A DNA stretch of 64,000 bases from an uncultured Muribaculaceae bacterium (GTDB lineage Bacteria > Bacillota_I > Bacilli_A > RF39 > UBA660). Of this stretch, positions 30,365 to 43,838 are shown piece by piece. The position numbers were made by a program, and so were the translations under genes. The stretch is from the NCBI GenBank assembly GCA_964494015.1, contig CAZBQC010000001.1:7551-71550 (forward strand). Reading direction: 5' to 3'. The notes beneath the pieces were generated by a model. The model did no database searches. It had not been told where the DNA came from and saw nothing but the letters and a program-made list of their open reading frames with translations. How positions within the stretch are numbered: position 1 is the stretch's first letter; the number at the start of each line of letters is the position of its first letter.

Positions 30365-30406
30365 TAAAAAGCATAAAATGGAGTGAATTCATTCTATGCT
30401 TTTTTT
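30365..30406. terminator. Bidirectional terminator between the surface-protein gene (+) and sodA (-).
   Basis: AGCATAAAATG...CATTCTATGCT hairpin with A5 upstream and T7 downstream. Confidence 0.55.
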
Positions 30407-31008
30407 GTGTTTTTATAGTTATTATTTATGGTATTGAAATCTACTATTTCAAAGAAATTATCGATATATTTATTTCGCTCATTTTTATATTTCAAGTAAT
30501 AGGCATGTTCCCATAAGTCTAGTGCCATGATTGGTGTATATCCAAAAGAATATGGTGTCTCTTGATTAGTGACATTGATAATATTTAAATTACCATTATC
30601 ATCAACTACCAACATGGTATAACCACTTCCAACTAAATTGTTAGCGTACTCCTTAAATGTATTCTTAAAATTATTAAAGTTTTGATATTTGCCATTAATA
30701 GCAGTTGCTATCTCATTTGCTGGAACATTATTTTTATTTGGACTCATATTATCAAAATATAAAATATGGTTTAGTACCCCTCCTAAATTAAAGAGAATAT
30801 CTCCTCGATCATTGATATCAAAAATATCCAAGTGATTGACTAATTCTTCCATTGAGTAACGATAATCATAATTATTCCTCTTTAGTAGGGCGTTTAAATT
30901 ATCCATATACTTCTGGGCATGTTTATCATGATGTAGTCGCATTGTTTCCTCATCGATGTATGGTTCTAGGGCATTATGAGGATACTTTAATGGTGGTAAT
31001 TCATACAT
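30394..31008 (-). CDS. sodA: Fe/Mn superoxide dismutase.
   Basis: HHDKHAQKYMDNLN and DLWEHAYYL motifs. Confidence 0.9.
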   Translation of the reverse strand: MYELPPLKYPHNALEPYIDEETMRLHHDKHAQKYMDNLNALLKRNNYDYRYSMEELVNHLDIFDINDRGDILFNLGGVLNHILYFDNMSPNKNNVPANEIATAINGKYQNFNNFKNTFKEYANNLVGSGYTMLVVDDNGNLNIINVTNQETPYSFGYTPIMALDLWEHAYYLKYKNERNKYIDNFFEIVDFNTINNNYKNTKKA

Positions 31009-31109
31009 AGTAAAACCTCCTACTTAATCGTATTAATTTCTCTTCTTTTTAGAATTAGTATTTGAGATTATTTGATTTTGTAATATAATATAATTAGAGT
31101 AGGTGAATA

Positions 31110-32108
31110 ATGAAAATATTAGTGACGGGTGGAACAGGGTATATTGGTAGTCATACTTGTGTCGAACTATTAAGAAATGGATTTGAGATAGTAGTGATTG
31201 ATAACTTGTCTAATTCTAAGATTGAGGTTGTCGATAAGATCAAGAAAATTACGGGGAAAGATTTTACCTTTTATCAGGGTGATATCAGAGATAGTTTACT
31301 ACTGGAAGAGATCTTTCAAAAAGAAGAAATTGATGCAGTGATTCATTTTGCGGGTTTAAAAGCTGTTGGAGAATCAGTTTCCAAGCCACTTCTTTACTAC
31401 CGTAATAATATCGATGGAACTTTGATTCTATGTGAGATTATGAACAAATATAACTGTAAGAGGCTGGTTTTTTCGAGTAGTGCGACAGTCTATGGTAAAC
31501 CAGAAACTTTACCTATTAAAGAAGATTTTCAATTATCGACGACTAATCCTTATGGTTCAACTAAATTATATATTGAAGGTATATTAAAAGACCTATATAT
31601 AGCTGATCATGAGTGGTCGATCGTCATCCTTCGTTATTTTAATCCGATTGGATCGGATAAATCTGGTTTGATTGGTGAAAATCCTAACGATATTCCTAAT
31701 AATTTAATGCCTTATATCATGAAAGTGGCAGTAGGGGAACTACCTCATTTAAATGTCTTTGGCAATGACTATGATACACCTGACGGAACTGGTGTTAGAG
31801 ATTATATTCATGTAGTCGATCTAGCTCTTGGACACTTGAGTGCTTTAAACATTTTAACTCCAGGAGTTGAGTACATCAATTTAGGTACTGGTAAAGGTTA
31901 CAGTGTCCTTGATCTTGTCAGTACTTTTATGAAGGTTAATCGAGTAGATGTTCCTTATAAGATTGTCGAACGACGTCCAGGAGACATCGATGCCTGTTAT
32001 GCCGACGTGACCTATGCTAAGAAAAGGTTAGGTTGGGAAGCTAAACATACTCTTGAAGAGATGTGCAAGGATGCCTATAATTTCATTAAAAACGAAAAGA
32101 ATCTTTAG
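31110..32108 (+). CDS. galE: UDP-glucose 4-epimerase.
   Basis: Rossmann N-terminus MKILVTGGTGYIGSH and a YxxxK SDR motif. Confidence 0.85.
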   Translation: MKILVTGGTGYIGSHTCVELLRNGFEIVVIDNLSNSKIEVVDKIKKITGKDFTFYQGDIRDSLLLEEIFQKEEIDAVIHFAGLKAVGESVSKPLLYYRNNIDGTLILCEIMNKYNCKRLVFSSSATVYGKPETLPIKEDFQLSTTNPYGSTKLYIEGILKDLYIADHEWSIVILRYFNPIGSDKSGLIGENPNDIPNNLMPYIMKVAVGELPHLNVFGNDYDTPDGTGVRDYIHVVDLALGHLSALNILTPGVEYINLGTGKGYSVLDLVSTFMKVNRVDVPYKIVERRPGDIDACYADVTYAKKRLGWEAKHTLEEMCKDAYNFIKNEKNL

Positions 32109-32193
32109 GATTTTTTTTAATTTCGATATAAAGTGATAAGTAGTGACATTACTTAAAATATATGTTAAAATTCTATTAGTAGAGGTGACTAGG

Positions 32194-32598
32194 ATGAATC
32201 GAAGTAAGTTAAGAGAAATAGCGATGAAAGTTTTATATCAAGTGTACATTCTTAACAATACTAAAGTTAAGTATGAGACTTGTGACCTCATCAAAGAACA
32301 ATTGGAAGTTGAAAACGATTTTATTAATACGATTGTCTTTGGAGTTATTAAAGAACAAAAAAATATTGAAAAATTAGCTAATAAATATTTAGTTGATTGG
32401 GAGTTAAATCAATTAAATAAGGTTGATAAAGCAATTCTTTCTCTTAGTATTTATGAACTTCTATATACTGATACACCTCATATTGTTTCAATTAATGAAG
32501 CAATTGAGTTATCAAAGGTTTATAGTGATCCGAAAGTTACTAAAATGATCAATGCGGTTTTAGATAATATTTATCATCATGAGGTTTTAGATGAATAA
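32194..32598 (+). CDS. nusB: Transcription antitermination factor NusB.
   Basis: MNRSKLREIAMKVLYQ... RBS AGAGGTGAC. The ORF track begins at 32143, but the ATG at 32194 fits the RBS. Confidence 0.8.
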   Translation: MNRSKLREIAMKVLYQVYILNNTKVKYETCDLIKEQLEVENDFINTIVFGVIKEQKNIEKLANKYLVDWELNQLNKVDKAILSLSIYELLYTDTPHIVSINEAIELSKVYSDPKVTKMINAVLDNIYHHEVLDE

Positions 32599-33847
32599 TG
32601 ATAAGTATCTTTCGGTTACGGAGTTAACTAGATATATTAAAGATTTAATCGATAATGATTTATTTTTAAATAATGTTTTTCTAAGAGGAGAAATATCCAA
32701 TTTTAAAGCTCATACGAGAGGTCACTTTTATTTTACTTTAAAAGATGAAAATTCAAGAATTAATGCCGTGATGTTTCTAGGTCAGGCTAGTAAAATAAAG
32801 TTTACACCGACTGATGGGATGAAAGTGTTAGTAACGGGCCGAATCAGTGTCTATGAGACAACTGGAGGATACCAAATTTATGTCGAAGAGATGATTGAGG
32901 ATGGGATTGGCAACTTATATATTGCTTTTGAACAGTTAAAGAAAAAATTAGAAGAAGAGGGCTTGTTTAGGGCTGAGCATAAGAGAAAGATTCCTAAGAT
33001 TCCAAAGAAGATTGGAATTGTTACAGCGTCTACTGGGGCAGCTGTCAAAGATATTTTATCGACGATTAAAAGAAGATGGCCACTAGCTGAAACTATTCTT
33101 TTTCCCAGTTTAGTTCAAGGAGAGTTGGCAGCTGACGATATTGTCAAAAATATTCAGTTAGCTAATAATTGTGACATTGATGTTTTGATAGTTGGTCGAG
33201 GTGGAGGCAGTATCGAAGATTTATGGCCTTTTAACGAAGAAATAGTCGCTCGAGCTATCTACAATTCCAAAGTGCCAGTTATCAGTGCTGTTGGGCATGA
33301 AATTGACTTTTCGATCAGTGATTTTGTGGCAGATTTAAGAGCTCCAACGCCAACCGGAGCGGCTGAATTATCGGTTCCTAATATCATCGATGTTTTGAAT
33401 TATTTAAGTCAGATTGATATTCGCTTAAATAAAGTCATCAGTCATAAGATTGATTTTAATCAAGAAATTTTAAATCGTTTAAAAAAGAGTTATGTTCTTA
33501 CTAATCCCATGTCAATTTATCAGATTAAAGAACAAAACTTTGATAATTTAATTGAAAGATTAAAGTTAAATATTTTAGCAATTATTAAGAATAATACAGA
33601 TTATTTTAAAAATCTTAAGAATAATTATCTTTTAAAAAATCCTAAGGTTCTATATGAAGCAAAAGCGAAAGAATATCAATATTTATTAAATAAGTTAGAA
33701 ATACTTAATCCTCTTTTAACGATTAAGCGAGGTTATAGTATTACTAAAAATAAAGGTAAGATAGTTAAAAGTATTAAAGATGTTAAAAAGAATGATCAAC
33801 TTAATATTGAAGTTACCGATGGTGTAATTGACGCCATCGTAGTATAG
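32591..33847 (+). CDS. xseA: Exodeoxyribonuclease VII large subunit.
   Basis: OB-fold N-terminus (VFLRGEISNFKAHTRGHFYFTLKD) and the catalytic region GRGGGSIEDLWPFNEE. Confidence 0.88.
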   Translation: MNNDKYLSVTELTRYIKDLIDNDLFLNNVFLRGEISNFKAHTRGHFYFTLKDENSRINAVMFLGQASKIKFTPTDGMKVLVTGRISVYETTGGYQIYVEEMIEDGIGNLYIAFEQLKKKLEEEGLFRAEHKRKIPKIPKKIGIVTASTGAAVKDILSTIKRRWPLAETILFPSLVQGELAADDIVKNIQLANNCDIDVLIVGRGGGSIEDLWPFNEEIVARAIYNSKVPVISAVGHEIDFSISDFVADLRAPTPTGAAELSVPNIIDVLNYLSQIDIRLNKVISHKIDFNQEILNRLKKSYVLTNPMSIYQIKEQNFDNLIERLKLNILAIIKNNTDYFKNLKNNYLLKNPKVLYEAKAKEYQYLLNKLEILNPLLTIKRGYSITKNKGKIVKSIKDVKKNDQLNIEVTDGVIDAIVV

Positions 33848-33855
33848 GAGGGAAT

Positions 33856-34080
33856 ATGGAAAAGAAAGAGTTAAGTTTTGAAGAAAATATTAAAAAGTTA
33901 GAGAGTATTGTTAAAGAACTCGAAAATGGTGAAGTACCACTGGATGAAGCCATTAAAAAATATCAGGAAGCTATGACTTTAGCTAAACTTTGCGATGACA
34001 AGTTAAAGAATGCTACCGAAACAATCAATAAGATTATGAATAAAGATGGCAGTCTATCTGATTTCAAGGCAGAAGAGTAA
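33856..34080 (+). CDS. xseB: Exodeoxyribonuclease VII small subunit.
   Basis: 74-aa coiled coil (ENIKKLESIVKELENGEVPLDEAIKKYQEA). Confidence 0.85.
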   Translation: MEKKELSFEENIKKLESIVKELENGEVPLDEAIKKYQEAMTLAKLCDDKLKNATETINKIMNKDGSLSDFKAEE

Positions 34081-34102
34081 TAGTGATTGGGGGAAGATTA
34101 AG

Positions 34103-34624
34103 ATGGCACGAAGTGATGAGTACGATAGAAGTTATGCAAAAATAAATACTTTATTAAATTTATATAACAAGATATATGAAATACCTTATACTTATAAAAA
34201 CAAAGATTCGATGCAGGACTTGTGCTTTTTGATGAATGAAATAGGACTTTCTCTTGGTGATTATTGTTTTGGTTTATATCATAGTGGTCCATTTTCCTAT
34301 ATCTTAGATGATCAAATTGACGAGTGTTTTAGAGAAAAAACAAACGAAAAAGAAATAACAAAACAAAATTACACTGAACTAGGTAATTTTGCCATCGAAG
34401 GTTTAAGAGTTCTAAAATATAGAATAATCAAATCTAATTGTACTGATTTATTGAAAGAAAAAAAGGATGATATTGTTTATTTTATGAACGCTATTGCTAT
34501 TGCAAAATATCTTATAGAGTATGAAAGACAAAGAGATGTTTTAAATACTTTAAATATTATGAGAGATAGAAAAGATGTTAATGAAATAGCTGTTGGAGAA
34601 GCTAGAAAATTACAAAGAATATGA
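34103..34624 (+). CDS. Hypothetical protein. It is the first gene of the accessory island.
   Basis: ORF with RBS GGGGGAAG 8 nt upstream of ATG 34103. I recognise no motif. Confidence 0.4.
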   Translation: MARSDEYDRSYAKINTLLNLYNKIYEIPYTYKNKDSMQDLCFLMNEIGLSLGDYCFGLYHSGPFSYILDDQIDECFREKTNEKEITKQNYTELGNFAIEGLRVLKYRIIKSNCTDLLKEKKDDIVYFMNAIAIAKYLIEYERQRDVLNTLNIMRDRKDVNEIAVGEARKLQRI

Positions 34625-34706
34625 TAAGAGTTTAAATAGATAAAAATTTTAATTTATAAAAACAAAAATATAGAGATTGATAAAAAATATCAATTTTTTT
34701 TGTTCT

Positions 34707-34765
34707 TGTTAGGATTTATTTTTTTTATGAGAAATATTATTAATAGGGGGTATTTTAAATAACAG
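34707..34765 (+). repeat. Conserved ~60-nt upstream element, copy A.
   Basis: About 80% identical to 36230-36282 (TTGTTAG[G/A]ATTT...GAGAAATATT[A/C]TTAATA[G/A]GG...). Confidence 0.5.
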
Positions 34766-34792
34766 AAAAACGAAAAAAAATTAGCTGAAAAG

Positions 34793-34819
34793 ATTTCTGT
34801 CGGAAATTTCGACAGAAAT
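34793..34819 (+). promoter_or_regulatory. 27-bp near-perfect palindrome upstream of the Bro-N gene. It is a candidate operator.
   Basis: ATTTCTGTCGGAAATTTCGACAGAAAT has 13/13 mirrored pairs except for one mismatch. It lies ~57 nt upstream of ATG 34876. Confidence 0.5.
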
Positions 34820-34875
34820 TCAGGAGTAGGGAAATTTAAAGTATATTATTTCTATGTCGTAGAAGGAGGATAGAT

Positions 34876-35658
34876 ATGGAAGAAAATAAGATGCGTTTAA
34901 TTAACAAAATATTTAATAATGAAACCATAAGAACGGTATGGGATAAAGAAGTTCAAAAATATTACATAAGTATTGTTGATGTTGTAGCATTATTATCAGA
35001 GAGCAAAAATCCACAAATATATTGGAGAGTATTAAAAAAGCGTTTGAAGGATGAAGGGAATGAAACCGTTACAAATTGTAACGGTTTGAAGTTAAGGGCT
35101 CAAGATGGTAAATATCGATTGGCTGATGTCTGTGATATTAAAGGAATTTTTAGAATTATAGAATCTATTCCATCTAAAAATGCCGAACCTATAAAACAAT
35201 GGCTAGCTAAACTTGGTAGTGAAAGAGTAGATGAGACTTTTGATCCTTCTCTTGCCCTTCAAAGAGCTATAGATTTATATAGGATAAAAGGTTATGATGA
35301 AAATTGGATTGCCAAAAGAATAAGGGTATTACAAGAAAGGAAGCAACTTACTGATGTTTGGAAAGAAAATGGTGTAACCGAACAAACGGAATATGCCATT
35401 CTTACCAATGAAATATATAAAAAATGGTCGGGTATGACGGCTAAAGAATATAAAGAATTTAAAGGGTTAAGAAGAGAAAGTCTTAGAGATAATATGGATA
35501 ATATTGAATTAATTTTAACAGATTTGTCAGAAGAAGCCACTAAAAGACTAGTAGTTAAGAAAAAACCTCAGGGATTGAAAGAAAATATTGGCGTTGCTAG
35601 ATTGGGAGGGAATGCTGCAAAATTGGCAAGAGAGGATATAGAAAAAAATCTTGGTTAA
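34876..35658 (+). CDS. Bro-N domain protein (phage antirepressor-like).
   Basis: FNNETIRTVWDKEVQKYYISIVDVVALL...GKYRLADVCDIKGIFRIIESIPSKNAEPIKQWLAKLG resembles Bro-N. RBS GAAGGAGG. Confidence 0.55.
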   Translation: MEENKMRLINKIFNNETIRTVWDKEVQKYYISIVDVVALLSESKNPQIYWRVLKKRLKDEGNETVTNCNGLKLRAQDGKYRLADVCDIKGIFRIIESIPSKNAEPIKQWLAKLGSERVDETFDPSLALQRAIDLYRIKGYDENWIAKRIRVLQERKQLTDVWKENGVTEQTEYAILTNEIYKKWSGMTAKEYKEFKGLRRESLRDNMDNIELILTDLSEEATKRLVVKKKPQGLKENIGVARLGGNAAKLAREDIEKNLG

Positions 35659-35702
35659 TCAGTAGTTACAAAAGATAGTAAATTAGACTATGAATATATA
35701 AA

Positions 35703-35729
35703 GGAAAATTCGGAAATTCCGTAAATTCT
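35703..35729 (+). repeat. Three tandem 9-mers that contain an 11-bp perfect palindrome.
   Basis: The 9-mers are GGAAAATTC, GGAAATTCC and GTAAATTCT. The 11-bp perfect palindrome is CGGAAATTCCG (35711-35721). Confidence 0.5.
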
Positions 35730-35761
35730 ATTAAACTAATAAATTTTTATGACTATAGAAA

Positions 35762-36211
35762 GTGATAACTGTGAAAAATGAAATAATATTATTTGAAAAT
35801 CAAAATGTTAAACTTGAAGTTAATATGCACGATGAAACAGTTTGGCTTAATAGGGAACAATTGGCTCAGTTGTTTGATAGAGACATTAAAATAATTGGCA
35901 AGCATGTTAATAATGTATTAAAAGAAGAATTAGATAAGGAAGTGGTTGTCGCAAAATTTACGACAACCACTAAACATGGTGCGATAGCTGGGAAAGAACA
36001 AAAAAGCATAGTTGATTATTACAATTTAGATATGATTATTAGTATCGGGTATCGTGTTAAAAGGAATAATGGTATTATTTTTAGAAAATGGGCAAATAAA
36101 ATTTTAAGAGATTATTTAATCCAAGGTTATGCAATTAATAATAAACGGTTAGAGTATCTTGAAAAAATTATTAAGATAATCGACATTGCAAATCAGATTT
36201 ATGCAAAATAG
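35762..36211 (+). CDS. RhuM-family N-terminal domain protein. It is a truncated paralog that lacks the Doc domain.
   Basis: NEIILFENQNVKLEVN..ETVWLNREQLAQLF...NLDMIISIGYRVK...FRKWANKILRDYLIQGYAINNKRL is RhuM-N. It is 149 aa and stops just after a 106-nt block that is ~97% identical to 36578-36683. The likely real start is GTG 35771, which aligns with the ATG of copy 2. Confidence 0.5.
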   Translation: MITVKNEIILFENQNVKLEVNMHDETVWLNREQLAQLFDRDIKIIGKHVNNVLKEELDKEVVVAKFTTTTKHGAIAGKEQKSIVDYYNLDMIISIGYRVKRNNGIIFRKWANKILRDYLIQGYAINNKRLEYLEKIIKIIDIANQIYAK

Positions 36212-36229
36212 CAATTCTTTTGTTAGAAT

Positions 36230-36282
36230 TTGTTTTTTTGACGAGAAATATTCTTAATAAGGTATATTAGAAAGTAATAACT
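36230..36282 (+). repeat. Conserved upstream element, copy B.
   Basis: See 34707-34765. Confidence 0.5.
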
Positions 36283-37215
36283 ATGAAAAATGAAATTATT
36301 ATATTTGAAAATCAAAATATTAAACTTGAAGTTAATCTTCAAAAAGAAACAGTTTGGTTAACTCAAAAACAGATAGCTATTCTTTTTGAAAAGGATGAAA
36401 ATACAATAAATGATCATATTAAAAACATATTTTTGGAAGGCGAATTAGAAAAAGAAACTTCCACCGGGATTTCCGGTAAAAGTTTTGGTGGCAGAAAAGC
36501 AAAAACATATAATTTAGATGTTATAATTTCGGTTGGATATCGAGTTAAATCTAAAAATGGTATTATCTTTCGTCAGTGGGCAAATAAAATTTTAAGAGAT
36601 TATTTAATCCAAGGTTATGCAATTAATAATAAACGGTTAGAGTATCTTGAAAAAACTATTAAGATAATCGACATTGCTAATCGTATTGATGAAAAATTAG
36701 AAAATAAGGAAGCCAAAGAAATTTTAAATATTATTGGCAAATATACCAAAGCTCTTAATATGTTAGATAATTATGATCATAAAAAAACAACTAAACCAAA
36801 AGGAACAAAAAATGATCAACGAATTAACTATGATGAATGTCTAGAACTTATTAATATTTTAAAAACTAACCAAAATAGTACTATTTTTGCACTGGAAAGA
36901 GACAATGGTTTAGAAGGAATTATTAAAGATATTTACCAAACATATGAATGCAAAGAACTATATCCTACTGTTGAAGAAAAAGCTGCTAATTTTTTATATA
37001 TGATTGTCAAAAATCATGTTTTTATTGATGGAAATAAAAGAATAGCAGCGACATTATTTATTTACTTTCTATTCAAATATGAAATTTTGTATATTAATGA
37101 TAAGCAAATCATCGACAATAACACTTTAACTGCAATGACTTTATTAATTGCTGAATCTAATCCTAAAGAAAAGGAAGTGATTATTGATCTAATATTAAAT
37201 TTCTTTAATAACTGA
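36283..37215 (+). CDS. RhuM-family protein with a C-terminal Fic/Doc (death-on-curing-like) domain.
   Basis: The N-terminal domain is as in 35762-36211. The C-terminal HVFIDGNKRIAATLF matches the Doc motif HxFxDGNKR. Confidence 0.6.
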   Translation: MKNEIIIFENQNIKLEVNLQKETVWLTQKQIAILFEKDENTINDHIKNIFLEGELEKETSTGISGKSFGGRKAKTYNLDVIISVGYRVKSKNGIIFRQWANKILRDYLIQGYAINNKRLEYLEKTIKIIDIANRIDEKLENKEAKEILNIIGKYTKALNMLDNYDHKKTTKPKGTKNDQRINYDECLELINILKTNQNSTIFALERDNGLEGIIKDIYQTYECKELYPTVEEKAANFLYMIVKNHVFIDGNKRIAATLFIYFLFKYEILYINDKQIIDNNTLTAMTLLIAESNPKEKEVIIDLILNFFNN

Positions 37216-37467
37216 TGTTTATTGAGTAAAACATTTTATAATGAAACAATAGAACTTTATGGAATAAAAAAGTTGAAAAATATTACATAAGTATTGTAGA
37301 CATAATTTAAGTTCTTGCAGAAAGTAGGGAGCCAAGAAAATATTGAAATTGGTTAAAAATAAATTGCAAAAAGAAGAGGAATTTGAAGTGTCTAGTATTA
37401 CTAAACACTTGAAATTGAAATCTGCTGATGGTAAATATTATAATACTAAGGTACTTGAAACTAAATA
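37216..37467 (+). pseudogene. Decayed fragment of a second Bro-N paralog.
   Basis: It is ~75% nt identity to codons ~1-85 of 34876-35658 (ATGtTTTTAtT..AATGAAACAATAGAAC..AAATATTACATAAGTATTGTAGAC). It has frameshifts and early stops, and no intact start. Confidence 0.55.
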
Positions 37468-37558
37468 AAAATTAATAAATATTTAAAATAAATTTATTTG
37501 CTAATATCTCTTTTATTTCCTTTTAAGTTGTTGTATAATGTCTTTTATTGGAGGTTTT

Positions 37559-39583
37559 ATGAATTTATCAAGAGAAGAGTTGCAACAGGAAGAAGCATAT
37601 TTAAAAGCTTGCTTACAGGAACTTGATGAACAAATAAAAGAACTGAAGTCTAATCTGATTGTTGAAGAACAGGAAATCAAGGATTTTAATAAGTATCTTT
37701 GGAATGAGCGTGGCAACATGGATCCAGTAGAAATTAGAAGTGGCATGTTGGAGTCCGATTTAGAAATACAAGAATTTGAAAGGAAAAGCAAATACTTAAA
37801 AAAATTATTAAGAATAAAAAACAGTCCTTATTTTGGAAGAATTGATTTTAATTCAGACCAAGAATATCAAGTGTATATAGGAATTACTCATTTAACCAAA
37901 AATTTAAAAAATTTAATTTATGATTGGCGTAGCCCAATTGCTAGTTTGTTTTATGATTCAAATATTGGTCATACTTCCTATCTTGCACCAGAAGGAAAAA
38001 TCTCTGGTTATCTATCCAAGAAAAGACAATATCGGATTGAAGAACGGAAAATAAAAGCCATTTTCGATAATAATTTAAATGTTACCGATGAGTTATTGCA
38101 ACAAGTACTGGCTAATAATAGTACTGAGAAAATGAAAAATATCGTCAATACTATTCAGGAAGAACAAAATGAAATTATTCGAAACATTAAAGATAAATAT
38201 CTAATTATTCAGGGAATTGCAGGAAGTGGTAAAACTTCGGTGGCTCTTCATCGTATTGCTTTTCTTTTATATAAGATTGATAAACTGACGAGTGAAGATG
38301 TGCTTATCTTTTCACCCAACAATATTTTTTCTTCCTATATTTCAAATGTTTTGCCAGAATTGGGGGAAGATAATACTAAGGAAACAACTTTCAGTGATTT
38401 TGCTATTAAATATGTTTCTGAATTCAAAAGTATTGAATCGTTTACTAGTTTTATCGCCCGTTCTTTTCAAAAAAGAGATAATGAACATGATTACAATTTG
38501 ATTAAATTCAAATTGAGTGATGATTTTATTAAGATCATTGAAGATTATGCCAAGGAAATAGAAAGAAATAGTAAGTTTCTACAAGATTTAATATATGAAG
38601 AAAGAACAGTTTTCAAAGAAGATTTGAATGAGTTAATACACGATCGATACAGTCGTTTAACTCTTTATGAAAGGATTCCTCAAATAAGTGAGCATCTGTG
38701 TCATAAGTTTGGTTTAAAAGTTACTCAACATGCTCGTTCGATCGAAAGCAGGCTTTATCGAATTTCGAATATCAGCAAAGACTTTATTAAAATTTATCAG
38801 AACTTGTATCAAAGTGCCTCTTTTAAAAGTAATTATGGTGTCATTCGAAGTGATCAACTACCTCAAAGTGACAATATTCTAAATTATGAAGATAGTCTGG
38901 CCTTCATTTACTTAAAAGGATTACTGACAGGTTTTCCTTACAGTAATCAGATTAAAGAAATAGTTGTCGATGAAGCACAGGATTACAGTAAACTACAATA
39001 TTTAATTTTAAAGACTATTTTTAAACGAGCAACTTTTACCATCTTAGGTGATATTAATCAAACTATTAATCCTTATTATCAATATCGATCTTTAGAAGAG
39101 TTAAGTTCAATATTTTCAAACGCTAAATATTTAGAGCTCACTAAAACTTATCGTTCTAGTGAAGAGATTATTAAATTTTCTAATCGTATTTTAGATTTAG
39201 ATTATGCTGTCAGTGTCCGTAAAAGTAATAATGTTCCAGTTAAAGAACGAGTCAGCCAAAATATTATTTCGGATCTTGTCGTCGATTTAACTAAAGGTTT
39301 AAATAAATATCGAAAAATGGCAATTATAACTAAAAGCATGGACGAAGCTAATTATCTTTATAAATCTTTAAAGTTTTCTTTTAAGGATCTTTCCTTAGCT
39401 ACTGAAACCAATTATACTAACACTAATTTAGTAATACTGCCGATTTACTTAGCTAAAGGGTTAGAATTTGATCAAGTTATTATCTATACTGATCATAATA
39501 ACAAGTATACTGACCGAGAAAAAAAGCTGTATTATGTGGCTGCAACTAGAGCTCAACATGAATTAATTGTCTATAATCAGTAA
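37559..39583 (+). CDS. helD: HelD-like UvrD/Rep superfamily-1 helicase.
   Basis: N-terminal coiled coil followed by Walker A GIAGSGKTSVALHR, motif II VVDEAQDYS and motif VI YVAATRAQHEL. RBS GGAGG precedes ATG 37559. The ORF track starts at 37538, inside the -10. Confidence 0.65.
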   Translation: MNLSREELQQEEAYLKACLQELDEQIKELKSNLIVEEQEIKDFNKYLWNERGNMDPVEIRSGMLESDLEIQEFERKSKYLKKLLRIKNSPYFGRIDFNSDQEYQVYIGITHLTKNLKNLIYDWRSPIASLFYDSNIGHTSYLAPEGKISGYLSKKRQYRIEERKIKAIFDNNLNVTDELLQQVLANNSTEKMKNIVNTIQEEQNEIIRNIKDKYLIIQGIAGSGKTSVALHRIAFLLYKIDKLTSEDVLIFSPNNIFSSYISNVLPELGEDNTKETTFSDFAIKYVSEFKSIESFTSFIARSFQKRDNEHDYNLIKFKLSDDFIKIIEDYAKEIERNSKFLQDLIYEERTVFKEDLNELIHDRYSRLTLYERIPQISEHLCHKFGLKVTQHARSIESRLYRISNISKDFIKIYQNLYQSASFKSNYGVIRSDQLPQSDNILNYEDSLAFIYLKGLLTGFPYSNQIKEIVVDEAQDYSKLQYLILKTIFKRATFTILGDINQTINPYYQYRSLEELSSIFSNAKYLELTKTYRSSEEIIKFSNRILDLDYAVSVRKSNNVPVKERVSQNIISDLVVDLTKGLNKYRKMAIITKSMDEANYLYKSLKFSFKDLSLATETNYTNTNLVILPIYLAKGLEFDQVIIYTDHNNKYTDREKKLYYVAATRAQHELIVYNQ

Positions 39584-39615
39584 ATATGATATGATACTAT
39601 TATAAGGATGGTATT

Positions 39616-40365
39616 ATGAAATGTATTTTATTATGTGCTGGTTATGCAACGAGACTGTTTCCATTGACAGAAAATTTTCCGAAAGCACTTTTACCAATTG
39701 GTAAGAAACAACTTTTAAATTATATTTATGATCAAGTGGAAACGATTCCTGATGTCGATGAAGTTTATATTATTACCAATAATCGTTATTATCAGCATTT
39801 TGTCACTTGGCAAAAAGCTTTAAAAACGGCAAAAAAAGTCAAGATTATTAACGATGGAACTAATTCCAATGATGATCGACTAGGAGCTATTGGTGACATT
39901 ATCTACACGATAAAACAAGAAGAAATTAATGATGATTTAATGATTATTGCGGGCGATAATTTATTTAATTATAAATTAATTGATGTTGTCAATTTCTATA
40001 AAGATAAAAATAAGACCGTTCTTTGTGCTAAAGAGTTAGATGATATCGATTTATTAAGAAGATTTGCAGTTGCTTTAGTTGATGATGACAGTAAAGTTAC
40101 ATCATTGGAGGAAAAACCCGAACATCCAAAAAGTAATTTAGGAGTTTATGCTACTTATCTTTATCCTCAAGAAGTTTTAAAATACTTTGATAAATATCAA
40201 GCAGCTGGATTAAAGATGGATGCTCCGGGACATTTTCCGGCCTACTTATATCAGTTTGAAGATGTTTATGTCTATAAATTTCAAGGTGAATGCTACGATA
40301 TTGGAACACATGAGACTTATCAATTGGTAAATGATTTATATTCAAAAAATGATTTAAATAATTAA
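39616..40365 (+). CDS. Sugar-phosphate/NTP nucleotidyltransferase family protein.
   Basis: The N-terminal LLCAGYATRLFPLTENFPKALLPIGKK is the signature of NTP-transferase fold proteins. Confidence 0.6.
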   Translation: MKCILLCAGYATRLFPLTENFPKALLPIGKKQLLNYIYDQVETIPDVDEVYIITNNRYYQHFVTWQKALKTAKKVKIINDGTNSNDDRLGAIGDIIYTIKQEEINDDLMIIAGDNLFNYKLIDVVNFYKDKNKTVLCAKELDDIDLLRRFAVALVDDDSKVTSLEEKPEHPKSNLGVYATYLYPQEVLKYFDKYQAAGLKMDAPGHFPAYLYQFEDVYVYKFQGECYDIGTHETYQLVNDLYSKNDLNN

Positions 40366-40416
40366 AGATAGCCATAATAATACTGTAGCTTTGCTTTTAA
40401 AAAGGAGTTGATCCTT

Positions 40417-41400
40417 ATGAAGTTTAAAAACAAACTACTTACACTATTTCTAGCTATTTTTATTATACCATTTCAAGTATTAGCTTATTCCTCCTATCTA
40501 ATTCCAGGCGGAGAATCAGTCGGGATTAAACTTGAATCAAAAGGTGTCATTATCGTCGGATTCTATAAAGTGAATGATGAATATATTGGCAGTGATTCAG
40601 GATTATCAATTGGCGATCGAATTGTTTCGATTAACGATAAAACCATTTCCAACATCGATGACTTAGTCAGAAATGTCAATGGAGAAAATAGTACGGTAAT
40701 TTTAAAAATTGGGTATCTTCATAACAATAGTTTAAGATACACTGATTTAAAGTTAGTAAAAGATCAAGATGGTATTTATAAAACGGGTTTATACGTCAAG
40801 GATAGTATCAATGGAATAGGGACCTTAACTTTTATCGACCCAGCGACTAAATTGTATGGTGCTTTAGGACATGAAATTGTCGAGAAGACCAGCAATTTAA
40901 AAATTGAAGTCAAAAATGGGAAGATATTTAAGTCTATCATTACAGGTATTGAAAGAAGTACCGATGGAAATCCAGGTGAAAAGAATGCCAGACTCTTTAG
41001 TGATGTTATTTATGGTAATGTTTCAATCAATGGTATTACTGGTGTTTTTGGGACCTATTCAGGAGCACTTCCTAATAAAAAGCTCATGAAAGTAGCTGAA
41101 CCTGATGAAATAACTTTAGGTAAAGCTCAAATAATGACCGTCTTGTCTGGCGAAAAAGTCGAAACTTTCGAAATTAAAATTTTATCGATTGACAAAAAGG
41201 GTACAATCAAAAATATTTTATTTGAAGTCACTGATTCGCGTCTTTTAGACGTAGCTGGTGGAATTATTCAGGGAATGTCAGGAAGTCCAATTATTCAGAA
41301 TAATATGATTATTGGAGCTGTTACTCATGTTGTGGTCAATGACGCAACTAAGGGATATGGTATTTTTATAACTAATATGCTAGATAGTGTAAACGAGTAG
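40417..41400 (+). CDS. SpoIVB-like S55 serine peptidase with a PDZ domain.
   Basis: Signal/TM N-terminus and a PDZ-like segment. GTLTFIDPATKLYGALGHEI and QGMSGSPII are S55 active-site regions. RBS AAGGAG precedes ATG 40417. Confidence 0.65.
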   Translation: MKFKNKLLTLFLAIFIIPFQVLAYSSYLIPGGESVGIKLESKGVIIVGFYKVNDEYIGSDSGLSIGDRIVSINDKTISNIDDLVRNVNGENSTVILKIGYLHNNSLRYTDLKLVKDQDGIYKTGLYVKDSINGIGTLTFIDPATKLYGALGHEIVEKTSNLKIEVKNGKIFKSIITGIERSTDGNPGEKNARLFSDVIYGNVSINGITGVFGTYSGALPNKKLMKVAEPDEITLGKAQIMTVLSGEKVETFEIKILSIDKKGTIKNILFEVTDSRLLDVAGGIIQGMSGSPIIQNNMIIGAVTHVVVNDATKGYGIFITNMLDSVNE

Positions 41401-41427
41401 AGACATTTAATTGTCTCTATTCTTTTT
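41398..41427 (+). terminator. Terminator of the spoIVB-like gene.
   Basis: TAGAGACA tttaat TGTCTCTA followed by TTCTTTTT. Confidence 0.6.
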
Positions 41428-41516
41428 CCAAAAAAGTTTGTTAATTTCATGATTAAAGATTGCTTTTTTAATTAAAAAAAACTATAATAAAAATCATGTT
41501 GAAAGGAAGGGAAATT

Positions 41517-43838
41517 ATGATTAAGACCAATTTACCAGTACTTGTTTTAAGAAATATCGTTTTATTTCCCTTCAGTGAAATTAGAATTGAAATCGATAAT
41601 ATCGAAGATAAAAAATTAATCTCTTTAGCCGAGTCTTATTATAATAATACTTTGTTGGTAATAACTAAAAGGGATAGTGAAACTGATGAAGTGGATCTTA
41701 ATCAGTTGCCAAAAGTAGGAGTTGTCGGCGAGATCAAGTTAAAGATGGAAATGCCTAACGGGAAAATGCGTCTAGTCATTGCTGGAGCAGTGAGAAATAA
41801 AATCTATGCTTATAGTGAAGACGATAGTGTTTTAGATTCGATGGTTGGAAGTGTCACTTACGAAGAGATCGATAATGTTGAGGAAATGGCCTATGCCCGA
41901 AGCTTAATTAAGCAGGTTGAACTTTATGTCAATAATGTTCCCCAGATTGGAAATAGTCTTTTATCTCAGATATCTAACGTGAGTAACATCGATAAAATTA
42001 CTGATTTAGTGGCTTTAGTTTTACCTTTTCCTCTTGATCGTAAAATCGATTATATCGAAGAAATAAATCCAATTGACAGAGTGAAGATGCTCCTTGATGA
42101 TATTAATCGTGATTTAGAAGTAATCAAACTAGAGAAAAAAATTGAAGATGAAGTGAGAGTTCAACTCGATGATGCTCAGAGGGAATTTGTCCTACGTGAG
42201 AAATTAAAAGCGATTAAGAATGAGCTAGGAGAAGCCATCAGTTTTGATCAAGAGGCTGACAATTTAAGAGAAAAAATTAATAATTTAAAATGTCCAGCTC
42301 GAATCAAAAAACGTCTTAATGAAGAGTTACATCGCTATATGACTTCTAATCCTAATTCTCCAGAGGTCAGCAATATTAGGAATTATTTAGAATATCTGTT
42401 ACAATTACCATGGGAAGTTTATACCAAGGATAATTTGAATTTAAAAGATATTTTAAAAAAGCTAGATGAGAGTCATTATGGCTTGAATAAAATTAAGGAT
42501 CGAATTATCGAATACATTGCTGTCAAGCAGTTTACTAATAATAATGCCACGAGTCCCATTATCTGTTTTGTCGGTCCACCAGGAGTTGGAAAAACTACCC
42601 TAGCTAAAAGTATTGCCAACAGTCTAAACCGAAAATGTGCCAAAATTTCAGTTGGTGGAGTAAACGATGAAGCCGAAATTGTCGGTCATCGTCGAACCTA
42701 TATTGGAGCAGCACCTGGCAAGATTATTGCCGGAATCAAAAAAGCTGGGAGTAATAATCCCGTTTTTATCATCGATGAGATCGACAAGATGACTAAAGAT
42801 ATTAAAGGTGACCCAGCCAGTGCTCTTTTAGATGTCTTAGATAAGGAACAAAACAATAAGTTTGTCGACTTGTATTTGGAAGAAGAGTTTGATTTATCAA
42901 AAGTGCTGTTTATTTTAACAGCTAATTATATAGAACAAATTCCTTATGAACTATTAGATCGTTTGGAAATTATCGAATTATCAAGTTATACCGAAGTAGA
43001 AAAATTAGAAATTGCTAAAAATCATCTTTTTAAAAAATTGATTAAAGAACATGGTTTAGGAAAAAAAGAAATAAAGATAACCGATGAAGCTATCTCTCAT
43101 ATCATCAGATTTTATACGATGGAGGCTGGAGTTAGAGAGTTAGAGCGCATGCTTTCGACAATTTTTCGTAAAATCGTCAAAGATTTATTAATCAATAAAG
43201 GCAAAAAAACTTATCAAATTGAAGTCGGAGATTTACCAAGCTATCTTGGAGAAATAAAATTTTCTCATCTTCTAAATGACCATGAGAACGAATCTGGAGT
43301 AGTTAATGCCTTATCCTATACTCCTTATGGTGGAGAGTTGTTAAAAATTGAAGTGACTAGCTTTAAAGGAGAAGGTAAAGTAATAATTACCGGTTCGGTG
43401 GGCAAAGTAATGGAAGAATCAATTATGATTGCTGTCAGTTACATTAAAAGTCGATGTGATGAGTTTGAAATCGATCCGAATCTTTTAAAGAAGAATGATT
43501 TTCATATTCATATTCCTGAAGGGGCAGTTAAAAAAGATGGTCCCAGTGCTGGAGTAACCATTACAACCGCCATTATTTCATTGTTAAAACGAAGGAAAGT
43601 CACCAATGCCATTTCGATGACCGGCGAAATTACTTTGGTAGGCAATATTCTTCCTGTGGGCGGAATCTATGAAAAGATGGTTGTAGCGAGCAAGAATATG
43701 ATCACCAAAGTCTTTATCCCAGTTCAAAACAAACATGATCTTACCGATTTACCAAGTTATGTCAAAGACAATTTATCGTTTGTTCCAGTAACAAATTATC
43801 TTGATATATATCAAGAGTTGTTTAAAAAGGAGATATAA
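41517..43838 (+). CDS. lon: ATP-dependent Lon protease.
   Basis: The LON N-domain, AAA+ GPPGVGKTT / FIIDEIDK and the protease serine DGPSAGVT. RBS AAAGGAAGGG precedes ATG 41517. Confidence 0.92.
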   Translation: MIKTNLPVLVLRNIVLFPFSEIRIEIDNIEDKKLISLAESYYNNTLLVITKRDSETDEVDLNQLPKVGVVGEIKLKMEMPNGKMRLVIAGAVRNKIYAYSEDDSVLDSMVGSVTYEEIDNVEEMAYARSLIKQVELYVNNVPQIGNSLLSQISNVSNIDKITDLVALVLPFPLDRKIDYIEEINPIDRVKMLLDDINRDLEVIKLEKKIEDEVRVQLDDAQREFVLREKLKAIKNELGEAISFDQEADNLREKINNLKCPARIKKRLNEELHRYMTSNPNSPEVSNIRNYLEYLLQLPWEVYTKDNLNLKDILKKLDESHYGLNKIKDRIIEYIAVKQFTNNNATSPIICFVGPPGVGKTTLAKSIANSLNRKCAKISVGGVNDEAEIVGHRRTYIGAAPGKIIAGIKKAGSNNPVFIIDEIDKMTKDIKGDPASALLDVLDKEQNNKFVDLYLEEEFDLSKVLFILTANYIEQIPYELLDRLEIIELSSYTEVEKLEIAKNHLFKKLIKEHGLGKKEIKITDEAISHIIRFYTMEAGVRELERMLSTIFRKIVKDLLINKGKKTYQIEVGDLPSYLGEIKFSHLLNDHENESGVVNALSYTPYGGELLKIEVTSFKGEGKVIITGSVGKVMEESIMIAVSYIKSRCDEFEIDPNLLKKNDFHIHIPEGAVKKDGPSAGVTITTAIISLLKRRKVTNAISMTGEITLVGNILPVGGIYEKMVVASKNMITKVFIPVQNKHDLTDLPSYVKDNLSFVPVTNYLDIYQELFKKEI

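Follow-up and report, generated by a model that had tools for sequence, protein, structure and literature searches.

We studied a window of 64,000 nucleotides (nt) from an uncultured Muribaculaceae bacterium (GTDB lineage Bacillota_I, Bacilli_A, RF39, UBA660; GenBank assembly GCA_964494015.1, contig CAZBQC010000001.1, positions 7,551 to 71,550 of the forward strand), and in particular the interval between xseB and helD, in which two genes with an N-terminal RhuM domain (RhuM-N) lie in tandem between an intact and a decayed Bro-N gene. The coordinates below are window positions, and all genes and open reading frames (ORFs) of note between xseB and helD are on the forward strand; loci from other metagenome contigs are designated by L and a number, L180 being the sister genome. 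The genes of the interval, together with the block that the two RhuM genes have in common, are as follows, with protein lengths in amino acids (aa):

33856-34080, forward strand: xseB, the left backbone flank (Pfam Exonuc_VII_S, 72.2 bits; collinear with L180)
34103-34624, forward strand: hypothetical gene, hereafter the orphan gene (173 aa from this ATG; 192 aa if the start is at 34046)
34876-35658, forward strand: intact Bro-N gene with a DinD-like C-terminal region (260 aa; PADLOC candidate family PDC-S13)
35762-36211, forward strand: ORF with RhuM-N only (149 aa, 146-149 codons; Pfam Virulence_RhuM, 75.2 bits, profile positions 2-69 of 252)
36088-36195, forward strand: copy of the shared block in the short gene, the conversion tract (104 of 108 positions identical to 36576-36683)
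36283-37215, forward strand: intact gene of RhuM-N plus Doc, a Fic-fold domain (310 aa; PADLOC PDC-S23)
36576-36683, forward strand: copy of the shared block in the intact gene, pairing with 36088-36195
37015-37041, forward strand: Doc-type motif HVFIDGNKR in the 310-aa gene, read from the translation
37215-37470, forward strand: decayed Bro-N remnant (aligns to codons ~6-85 of the intact gene; in-frame stops and frameshifts)
37538-39583, forward strand: helD, on the right flank in the backbone (484 bits with NCBIfam HelD_BACSU, whose cut-off is 419)

An initial annotation, made from the letters of the sequence, had listed these Bro-N and RhuM genes between xseB and helD, and all of them lie at, or within a few bases of, the places it had given: the intact Bro-N gene of 260 aa, the 149-aa ORF with RhuM-N only, the RhuM-N plus Doc gene with its motif HVFIDGNKR, and the Bro-N remnant, which is indeed a decayed copy broken by stops and frameshifts. 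In searches with hidden Markov models (HMMs), both Virulence_RhuM and Bro-N score above their Pfam cut-offs.

As regards the intact RhuM-Doc gene, its 310-aa protein is matched by PDLC04965 with E = 1.9e-113 (residues 1-309 on profile positions 1-324 of 327) and by PDLC04963 with E = 2.7e-109, and Pfam finds PF13310 Virulence_RhuM with 68.8 bits (cut-off 33.7) and PF02661 Fic with 46.1 bits (cut-off 24). The protein also matches the Doc-like toxin family phrog_577 (E = 1.4e-15), and its 34.3 bits against TIGR01550 (DOC_P1) are under the cut-off of 38.65. At least 8000 homologues were scored, of which the best 120 are all 309-380 aa long and carry both domains; one homologue bears the name 'virulence protein RhuM/Fic/DOC family protein', the NCBI name of the family. 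The motif HVFIDGNKR aligns to HIFNDANKR of P1 Doc (PDB 3k33, a weak match) and to HCFYNANKR of 9vzc (E = 5e-4), and its H, F, D, G, K and R are invariant across 49 homologues. Together with the Fic score, the alignment to solved Doc proteins makes this a true Fic/Doc context.

Compared with known systems, the gene is like PDC-S23 in its full-length HMM match, its two Pfam domains, its length class (309-333 aa) and its intact Doc motif, but unlike the family it lies outside restriction-modification (RM), BREX or DISARM loci, in a 2.8-kb insert amid housekeeping genes, and adjoins a broken paralogue. With the classic RhuM (Salmonella pathogenicity island SPI-3; PF13310; PDC-S05) the window genes have in common the N-terminal ~70 profile positions including FRxWA...GY...RL, whereas the C-terminal ~180 RhuM profile positions are missing from them and Doc stands there in the intact gene. 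In fact the RhuM matches of the window genes span only profile positions 2-69 or 14-69 of 252, as against 1-205 for a classic RhuM at L046, and a classic full-length RhuM was rejected for them on this ground. The likeness to Phd-Doc of phage P1 lies in the motif H-x-F-x-D-G/A-N-K-R and in the sequence similarity to solved Doc proteins; here, however, no Phd/YefM gene is adjacent, and the toxin domain is fused to an N-terminal region of ~200 aa. Neither the RhuM-N remnant upstream nor the Bro-N remnant downstream matches any antitoxin family in Pfam or NCBIfam. The Doc protein of P1 acts as a kinase on EF-Tu, and by phosphorylating it blocks translation.

Some of these families have been met before in the context of defence. 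The PDC families were picked because their members sit inside loci of BREX, DISARM or type I RM systems (10.1101/2024.01.29.577857), and a gene of the RhuM family PDC-S05 in E. coli brings the plating of T7 and T5 down ~1000-fold and that of T4 ~10-fold (10.1101/2024.09.26.614923). A RhuM-DOC fusion, and both domains as toxins alongside RM systems, had already been proposed in 2013 (PMC3710099).

The Bro-N protein matches PDLC04920 with E = 7.5e-106 (residues 11-260 on profile positions 8-257 of 286) and phrog_15286 with E = 1.1e-96, and its Bro-N domain reaches 26.9 bits in Pfam (cut-off 25.6). Against the DinD equivalog model of NCBIfam, NF008573, it scores 28.5 bits where the cut-off is 242, and over residues 141-230 only; being below this cut-off, the protein was rejected as DinD itself. 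The sequence GAAGGAGG sits 7 nt ahead of its ATG. Thus with PDC-S13 the gene has in common the full-length HMM match, the Bro-N domain and the weak DinD-like similarity of the C-terminal region, and the window differs in having one intact plus one decayed copy. The decayed copy holds a patch of 85 nt that is 84% identical to the intact gene, and as a whole it has ~70% identity with Bro-N genes over 224 nt; for the Bro-N genes behind RhuM-Doc in L125 and L127 the nt identity is 70-71%. The RhuM-Doc gene's TGA and the ATG of the decayed copy overlap (TGATG). In an hhalign comparison, RhuM-N and the N-terminal ~150 aa of PDC-S13 are collinear over 124 columns (P = 0.0043, with a probability of only 8%), which gives a hint that the N-terminal half of the PDC-S13 protein may share its origin with RhuM-N. 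The segments SKNxxxxxxWxxK and GY are seen in both sequences of that alignment. A published annotation lists dinD and RhuM domains in one coding sequence (PMC9881135).

The short RhuM ORF merits separate attention. It matches only the N-terminal ~135-145 positions of the PADLOC models PDC-S23 and PDC-S05, and no Fic match is found for it in Pfam. Among 5.8 billion proteins searched, its relatives are 66-79% identical in aa, the nearest 76-79%, and at the nt level it is 81% identical to L094-99 and 78% to L159, L161 and L162, including the 18 nt upstream of the start; with the neighbouring 310-aa gene, the identity outside the shared block is ~57-62% in aa and 62% in nt over the first ~140 codons. 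The short copy and its aligned relatives carry an insertion of 8-9 aa (VVAKFxxTTxHGAI), whereas the 310-aa gene and its relatives are without it, and full-length 317-aa RhuM-Doc genes of this kind, which we call variant A, exist at L159, L161, L162, L114, L151 and L134. The initial annotation was thus right that the two genes have diverged outside the block, but its description of the short ORF as a truncated duplicate of the neighbour does not hold, since the ORF is closer to foreign variant-A genes than to the neighbour. Judged from these identities, the short copy appears to be what is left, at the N-terminal end, of a RhuM-Doc gene from a second subfamily, variant A, that was separately acquired or diverged anciently. 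Its homology to RhuM-Doc ends exactly at the TAG (36209-36211), where the gene is cut at codon 146, and the base after this TAG is the first of the P-box, an upstream element of ~55 nt, of the 310-aa gene. At 35771 the short copy has GTG where the neighbour has ATG, and a GAAAG motif is kept 9 nt ahead of this homologous start.

Within these diverged genes lies the block of near-identity. The initial annotation had given it as ~97% identical between 36090-36195 and 36578-36683 and had seen in it the pattern of gene conversion or recombination; by our alignment it comprises 104 identical positions of 108 (36088-36195 and 36576-36683), with a single difference in the 90 nt of the core 36098-36187. 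The third codon positions differ at 0 of 35 sites in the block and at 47 of 100 in the remaining alignment (Fisher p = 1.7e-8). For ten RhuM-Doc genes of foreign genomes, five per subfamily, the identity with either copy of the window is only 69-81% in the block, and therefore the near-identity does not come from constraint at the nt level; the chance of at least 104 of 108 identical positions at p = 0.81 is 2.5e-6. Moreover several residues are derived in both window copies and missing from the relatives examined, namely the R in ILRDY and the Q in LIQGY, and the I and N in YAINN and the I in KIIDI are likewise derived in both copies only. Because of the third-position identity, the lower identity in relatives and the residues unique to the window copies, the block is well supported as a tract of gene conversion or recombination between the two tandem RhuM genes, and the early reading is in this respect borne out. 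Inside the block both copies are equidistant from the relatives of both subfamilies, and so the donor cannot be told. The stop of the short ORF lies 16 nt past the end of the block, right after it as had been observed before. Such a short near-identical tract, synonymous sites included, within diverged tandem neighbours is like the concerted evolution of paralogues, with the differences that one partner here is a truncated remnant and that the tract ends 16 nt before homology is lost.

The conserved LEK(T) codons of the block hold a run of six As (GAAAAAA) at 36161-36166 and 36649-36654, and at L189:4385-4400 the same run is A8 with the frame shifted. It is possible that this A-run, in the most conserved block of the family, is a slippage-prone site, or else that the longer run is a homopolymer sequencing error.

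To delimit the insert, the sister genome provides the natural comparison. The window is collinear with L180 at 30401-34658 (78% nt identity) and again at 37507-42784 (76%), and the 2.85 kb of the window between these stretches takes the place of 0.64 kb in L180. There the gene order is nusB, xseA, xseB, a 177-aa homologue of the orphan protein, a 171-aa ORF and helD, with the orphan-like pair at L180:6001-7127. The orphan gene is thus collinear with a genome that has no Bro-N and RhuM genes, and therefore it belongs to the backbone and not to the insert; the island does not begin at 34103 with the hypothetical gene, as had been supposed in the initial annotation. Drawn from this comparison, the true insert is the ~2.8 kb from about 34,704 to 37,500, starting after the terminator-like hairpin of the orphan gene and ending at the helD promoter. 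A like hairpin plus T-run stands in L180 just ahead of the helD promoter region. In the more distant relative L050, xseB is followed by helD after 490 bp, with no forward-strand ORF of at least 50 aa between them. No flanking direct repeats (target-site duplications) are seen around the insert, which has neither an integrase gene nor an Rfam match, and no tRNA is found in the window by the Rfam and tRNA scans. The host is a low-GC bacterium of the gut; in this region its GC content varies between 21 and 34% and does not change abruptly at the insert.

Three copies of the P-box and two hairpins accompany these genes:

34672-34703, forward strand: AT-rich hairpin with a T8 run, terminator-like, marking where the insert begins on the left (folds at -7.3 kcal/mol; z = -2.2)
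34706-34759, forward strand: P-box copy 1, heading the Bro-N unit (its identity with 36220-36273 is 81% in 54 nt and 87.5% in 40 nt)
34792-34820, forward strand: hairpin of 13 bp without mispairing, in the Bro-N leader (-14.9 kcal/mol, z = -4.3; 1 of 200 shuffles folds equally well)
35723-35761, forward strand: P-box copy 2, ahead of the short RhuM ORF (homologous to 36212-36282 minus 23 nt)
36212-36282, forward strand: P-box copy 3, ahead of the intact RhuM-Doc gene (from repeat alignments)

The P-box is found at no other place in the 64-kb window, and the likeness to RhuM-Doc loci of other genomes reaches no farther than 14-18 nt ahead of the start codon and so stops short of it. The leader hairpin could be an operator or a leader structure. 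No T-run stands behind it, and a related CGGAAATTCCG core is seen upstream of the short RhuM ORF at 35710-35720.

Independent assemblies from two other sequencing runs match the window at 33844-35378 with 99.9% identity (1 mismatch) and at 36626-39826 with 100%. Both junctions being thus matched, the insert junctions are not an assembly artefact. The Logan contig L184, which corresponds to window 36626-39826, begins inside the repeated block, and this start fits a contig break at a real repeat. If such repeat-induced breaks occur, the RhuM-Doc family would often be fragmented in short-read metagenomes, and the numbers of 'short RhuM' proteins in databases would be inflated.

The neighbourhood of the family was surveyed at 80 metagenome loci with a RhuM-Doc gene, two of them frameshifted, with flanks of up to 4 kb that are shorter on small contigs. 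By tblastn with the short copy, no second RhuM copy is found in the available flanks of these loci. The neighbours are YaaA, ABC transporters, inositol monophosphatase, glycosyltransferases, tRNA methyltransferases and other housekeeping genes, almost always on the same strand as RhuM-Doc, and no antitoxin family, Phd/YefM included, is among the 25 most frequent Pfam families of either side. The sole RM-type family is N6_N4_Mtase (2 of 54 upstream ORFs); the embedding in type I RM loci that the literature would lead one to expect is thus not seen for this RhuM-Doc subfamily at the 80 loci. The recurrent neighbours of mobile or conflict type are only Bro-N (2 of 52 downstream and 2 of 54 upstream) and ORF6N (3 of 52 downstream). 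A Bro-N gene of the PDC-S13 type stands directly behind RhuM-Doc at L125, where it is intact (284 aa, 70% identical), and at L127, where it is truncated (157 aa), and at L094-99 a Bro-N fragment of 83 aa occupies the same position. The order RhuM-Doc then Bro-N hence recurs in three lineages, with Bro-N in varied states of decay. Among phage records, 72 of 50,697 have a RhuM-N domain, mainly Streptococcus satellite phages and Wolbachia phage WO, while a near full-length RhuM-Doc occurs in 1 and the Bro-N gene in 4, all of these being unannotated faecal fragments.

The best 120 relatives of the short copy are 135-261 aa long in a continuous range, and only one of them has a Fic match. That these relatives are without the catalytic Doc part although full-length variant-A genes exist is an observation to which contig breaks at the conserved block may contribute. 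On long contigs, where five such N-only relatives were examined, the lesions are nonetheless real:

L092: 148 aa, product on 24 contigs; a lone ORF, cut short at the very codon where the window copy is
L094-99: 211 aa, product on 57 contigs; full gene that has lost one base at about aa 203
L186: 150 aa; full gene with a frameshift near aa 135
L189: 135 aa; indel at an A-run, then truncation
L188: 151 aa; internal deletion of aa 145-279

The lesions of the five all differ, comprising a truncation, two frameshifts, an internal deletion, and a frameshift with truncation, and none of the five (0/5) has a full-length RhuM copy beside it, all of them standing alone among housekeeping genes. The Doc domain has very often been lost, and by many independent routes, which argues against the N-only form as a conserved partner; this repeated loss is what would be expected of a costly toxin gene without an antitoxin.

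Besides these, frameshifted fragments with Doc only are observed 2.4 kb downstream of an intact RhuM-Doc gene at L001, L002, L005, L006 and L008 (for example L001:8380-8863); they cover residues 150-310, are up to 78-79% identical to the window protein, and an inositol monophosphatase gene lies between.

The reading that we prefer, to which we would give a probability of about 0.62, is that the insert is an array of three units, in which the short ORF is a deletion remnant, ~100 nt have been converted between the RhuM genes, and the intact genes are stand-alone anti-phage candidates with a Doc kinase mechanism. The first unit would be the intact Bro-N/DinD-like gene of PDC-S13 headed by its P-box; the second, also headed by a P-box, would be the 5' 440 nt of a RhuM-Doc gene from one subfamily; and the third would be the intact RhuM-Doc gene of the other subfamily, PDC-S23, followed by a now decayed Bro-N gene that once overlapped its stop. 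A deletion would have removed the Doc half of the second unit and fused its codon 146 to the head of the third, which would give the short RhuM ORF, and at the same time or later gene conversion would have homogenised the ~100 nt. As for the function, the most likely mechanism, by analogy, is that RhuM-Doc is a sensor and a kinase effector in a single chain: RhuM-N would keep Doc inactive until a cue of infection, the released Doc domain would phosphorylate EF-Tu, and the resulting stop of translation would lead to abortive infection. What the sequences show is the anatomy of the locus, the membership of the families, the boundaries of the insert, the conversion tract and the repeated inactivation of such genes in other genomes; the anti-phage role, the EF-Tu target, the trigger and the restraint of the toxin all belong to the analogy. 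The Bro-N/DinD-like protein would be a second, independent candidate anti-phage gene.

Several points weigh against this reading. The history in three units is a reconstruction, and the order of Bro-N before RhuM in the first unit misfits the repeated order RhuM-Doc then Bro-N. The short ORF is free of internal lesions and has 2 private changes at otherwise invariant columns, which is no excess, and its dN (the nonsynonymous divergence) to variant-A relatives is 0.14-0.25, as against 0.07-0.17 among the relatives, about 1.5 times; it may have become a remnant only recently, or may still be constrained to some extent, and is thus only a candidate pseudogene. The central 1.25 kb that holds the short copy, 35379-36625, has no match among the independent assemblies. 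No defence genes stand beside the insert, the flanks being xseA/xseB and helD, and there is no embedding in RM, BREX or DISARM loci. The AlphaFold2 model of the 310-aa protein, built with 45 homologues, is poor (mean pLDDT, the predicted local distance difference test score, 57.9), and a Foldseek search of the PDB with it gives no match at E <= 0.001. Lastly, a full-text literature search on the names PDC-S13 or PDC-S23 found no paper.

Among the other explanations, the one nearest to the initial annotation is that the RhuM-N protein without Doc works together with the intact RhuM-Doc protein, as a decoy, a dominant-negative subunit or an antitoxin-like regulator, with the shared block keeping the interaction surface. 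The ORF is open, has its GAAAG motif and only the 2 private changes just mentioned; it could be co-transcribed with the Bro-N gene, no terminator being predicted between them; PADLOC has several short models of RhuM-N only (82-174 positions), and N-only ORFs of 135-153 aa are common among relatives. We nevertheless consider such a role unlikely: a second RhuM copy is missing from the available flanks of all 80 RhuM-Doc loci, the five N-only ORFs examined elsewhere are lone and made by five different lesions, which is a pattern of decay, the truncated relatives vary continuously in length (135-261 aa), the short copy comes from a different subfamily and has lost the ATG and 23 nt of the upstream element, and gene conversion explains the block without selection. 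The decoy or regulator that had been suggested for the short ORF thus finds no counterpart in the relatives. A related and still more doubtful idea is that the Doc-less ORF tunes RhuM-Doc, in a dominant-negative or priming manner, or donates sequence that changes its sensing, the tract being the footprint; to this belongs the thought, prompted by the hhalign comparison, that RhuM-N and the N-terminal ~150 aa of the Bro-N/DinD-like protein are one ancient sensor module with interchangeable C-terminal effectors, and if this were true, all four genes of the insert would form one superfamily. Taken as a silent donor cassette of the pilS/pilE type, which would diversify the N-terminal sensing domain, the truncated copy would agree with a conversion tract that joins a partial and a full copy and with the partial fragments that recur near intact genes at L001, L002, L005, L006 and L008. 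Yet there is only one partial copy with one tract of ~100 nt, the tract covers the most conserved and not the variable part of the domain, the direction of transfer is not resolvable from the block identities, most loci are without a partial copy, and the insert has no recombinase gene, all four of its ORFs being accounted for; we hold this to be very improbable.

The insert as a whole could also be imagined as the remnant of a prophage, satellite or addiction module, in which Bro-N would serve as an antirepressor and RhuM-Doc as a 'prophage maintenance killer' that has lost its antitoxin. This would agree with the name 'prophage maintenance system killer protein' that one source gives to a homologue, with the matches to the Doc-like toxin phrog_577 and to phrog_15286, and with the RhuM-N domains of Streptococcus satellite phages and Wolbachia phage WO; but it is improbable for 2.8 kb without integrase, repressor, structural or replication gene in a window without tRNA, when RhuM-Doc is near full length in 1 and the Bro-N gene present in 4 of 50,697 phage records, when no Phd/YefM-like gene is adjacent or among the most frequent neighbour families at the 80 loci, and when the neighbours at related loci are housekeeping genes. 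The poorest chance of all we give to an artefact of metagenome assembly, that is, a chimeric join or a collapsed repeat behind the tandem arrangement or the near-identical block. The source is a metagenome-type contig whose proteins are database singletons, and 35379-36625 is outside the coverage of the independent assemblies. On the other hand, the assemblies from two further runs agree with both junctions at 99.9-100%, the block is imperfect with 4 mismatches, the short copy exits the block into unique sequence that runs into the head of the next unit, and the break of the Logan contig inside the block is the expected product of a real repeat.

The locus is a case of ordinary accessory-gene turnover, of which the conversion tract, the truncated copy and the Bro-N remnant are usual marks; its intact genes are ordinary members of known candidate families, and there is no new system. 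The conversion tract is textbook paralogue dynamics. What the locus does provide is a clean natural example of PDC-S13 and PDC-S23 outside an RM or defence island, with a near-empty site in the sister genome for comparison. The adjacency of RhuM-Doc and Bro-N in three lineages would allow that the pair travels, and perhaps acts, together, and cooperation between the two is compatible with it. Such by-products as the gene pair, the recurrent inactivation and the xseB site could guide experiments on the PDC-S13 and PDC-S23 candidates, and none of them alters current concepts.

As for the orphan gene of the backbone, it has no match in Pfam, NCBIfam, PADLOC or PHROGs, and its protein has only two credible homologues, P0246 (56%) and P0247 (37%, 171 aa), the former, its closest, being encoded in the sister genome L180, and the latter being the sole full-length match beyond the query itself among 1.8 billion cluster representatives searched. 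A Panacea/SocA-like antitoxin, which the sequence pattern had brought to mind, was dropped as a candidate, given no Pfam match even at E <= 10 and almost no homologues. The 171-aa ORF beside the orphan homologue in L180 has motifs in common with the orphan gene and was judged by eye, from its translation, to be a paralogue. A promoter and terminator scan gave 26 promoter-like sites where 26.3 are expected, and it missed the AT-rich hairpin after the orphan gene.

The site after xseB is used again in other genomes. At L046:2417-4074 the classic RhuM of 280 aa (profile positions 1-205) directly follows xseB and is itself followed by an Imm5-like gene, at L154:3632-4939 a RhuM-Doc gene is directly downstream of xseB, and at L180:5756-7270 two similar orphan genes follow in tandem; at L050:4353-5082 there is no cargo, and in most other relatives the genes after xseB are unrelated. 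A RhuM-type gene hence stands just after xseB in three species of the clade, the window included. This suggests that the site downstream of xseB is a small hotspot of cargo exchange without a recombinase gene, which perhaps works via recombination in the conserved flanks. A lone RhuM-N fragment of 50 codons, 69% identical to the short copy, is also observed in another relative at L040:15075-15227; it lies 3.6 kb downstream from xseB, where two membrane-protein genes are separated by a gap of 670 bp.

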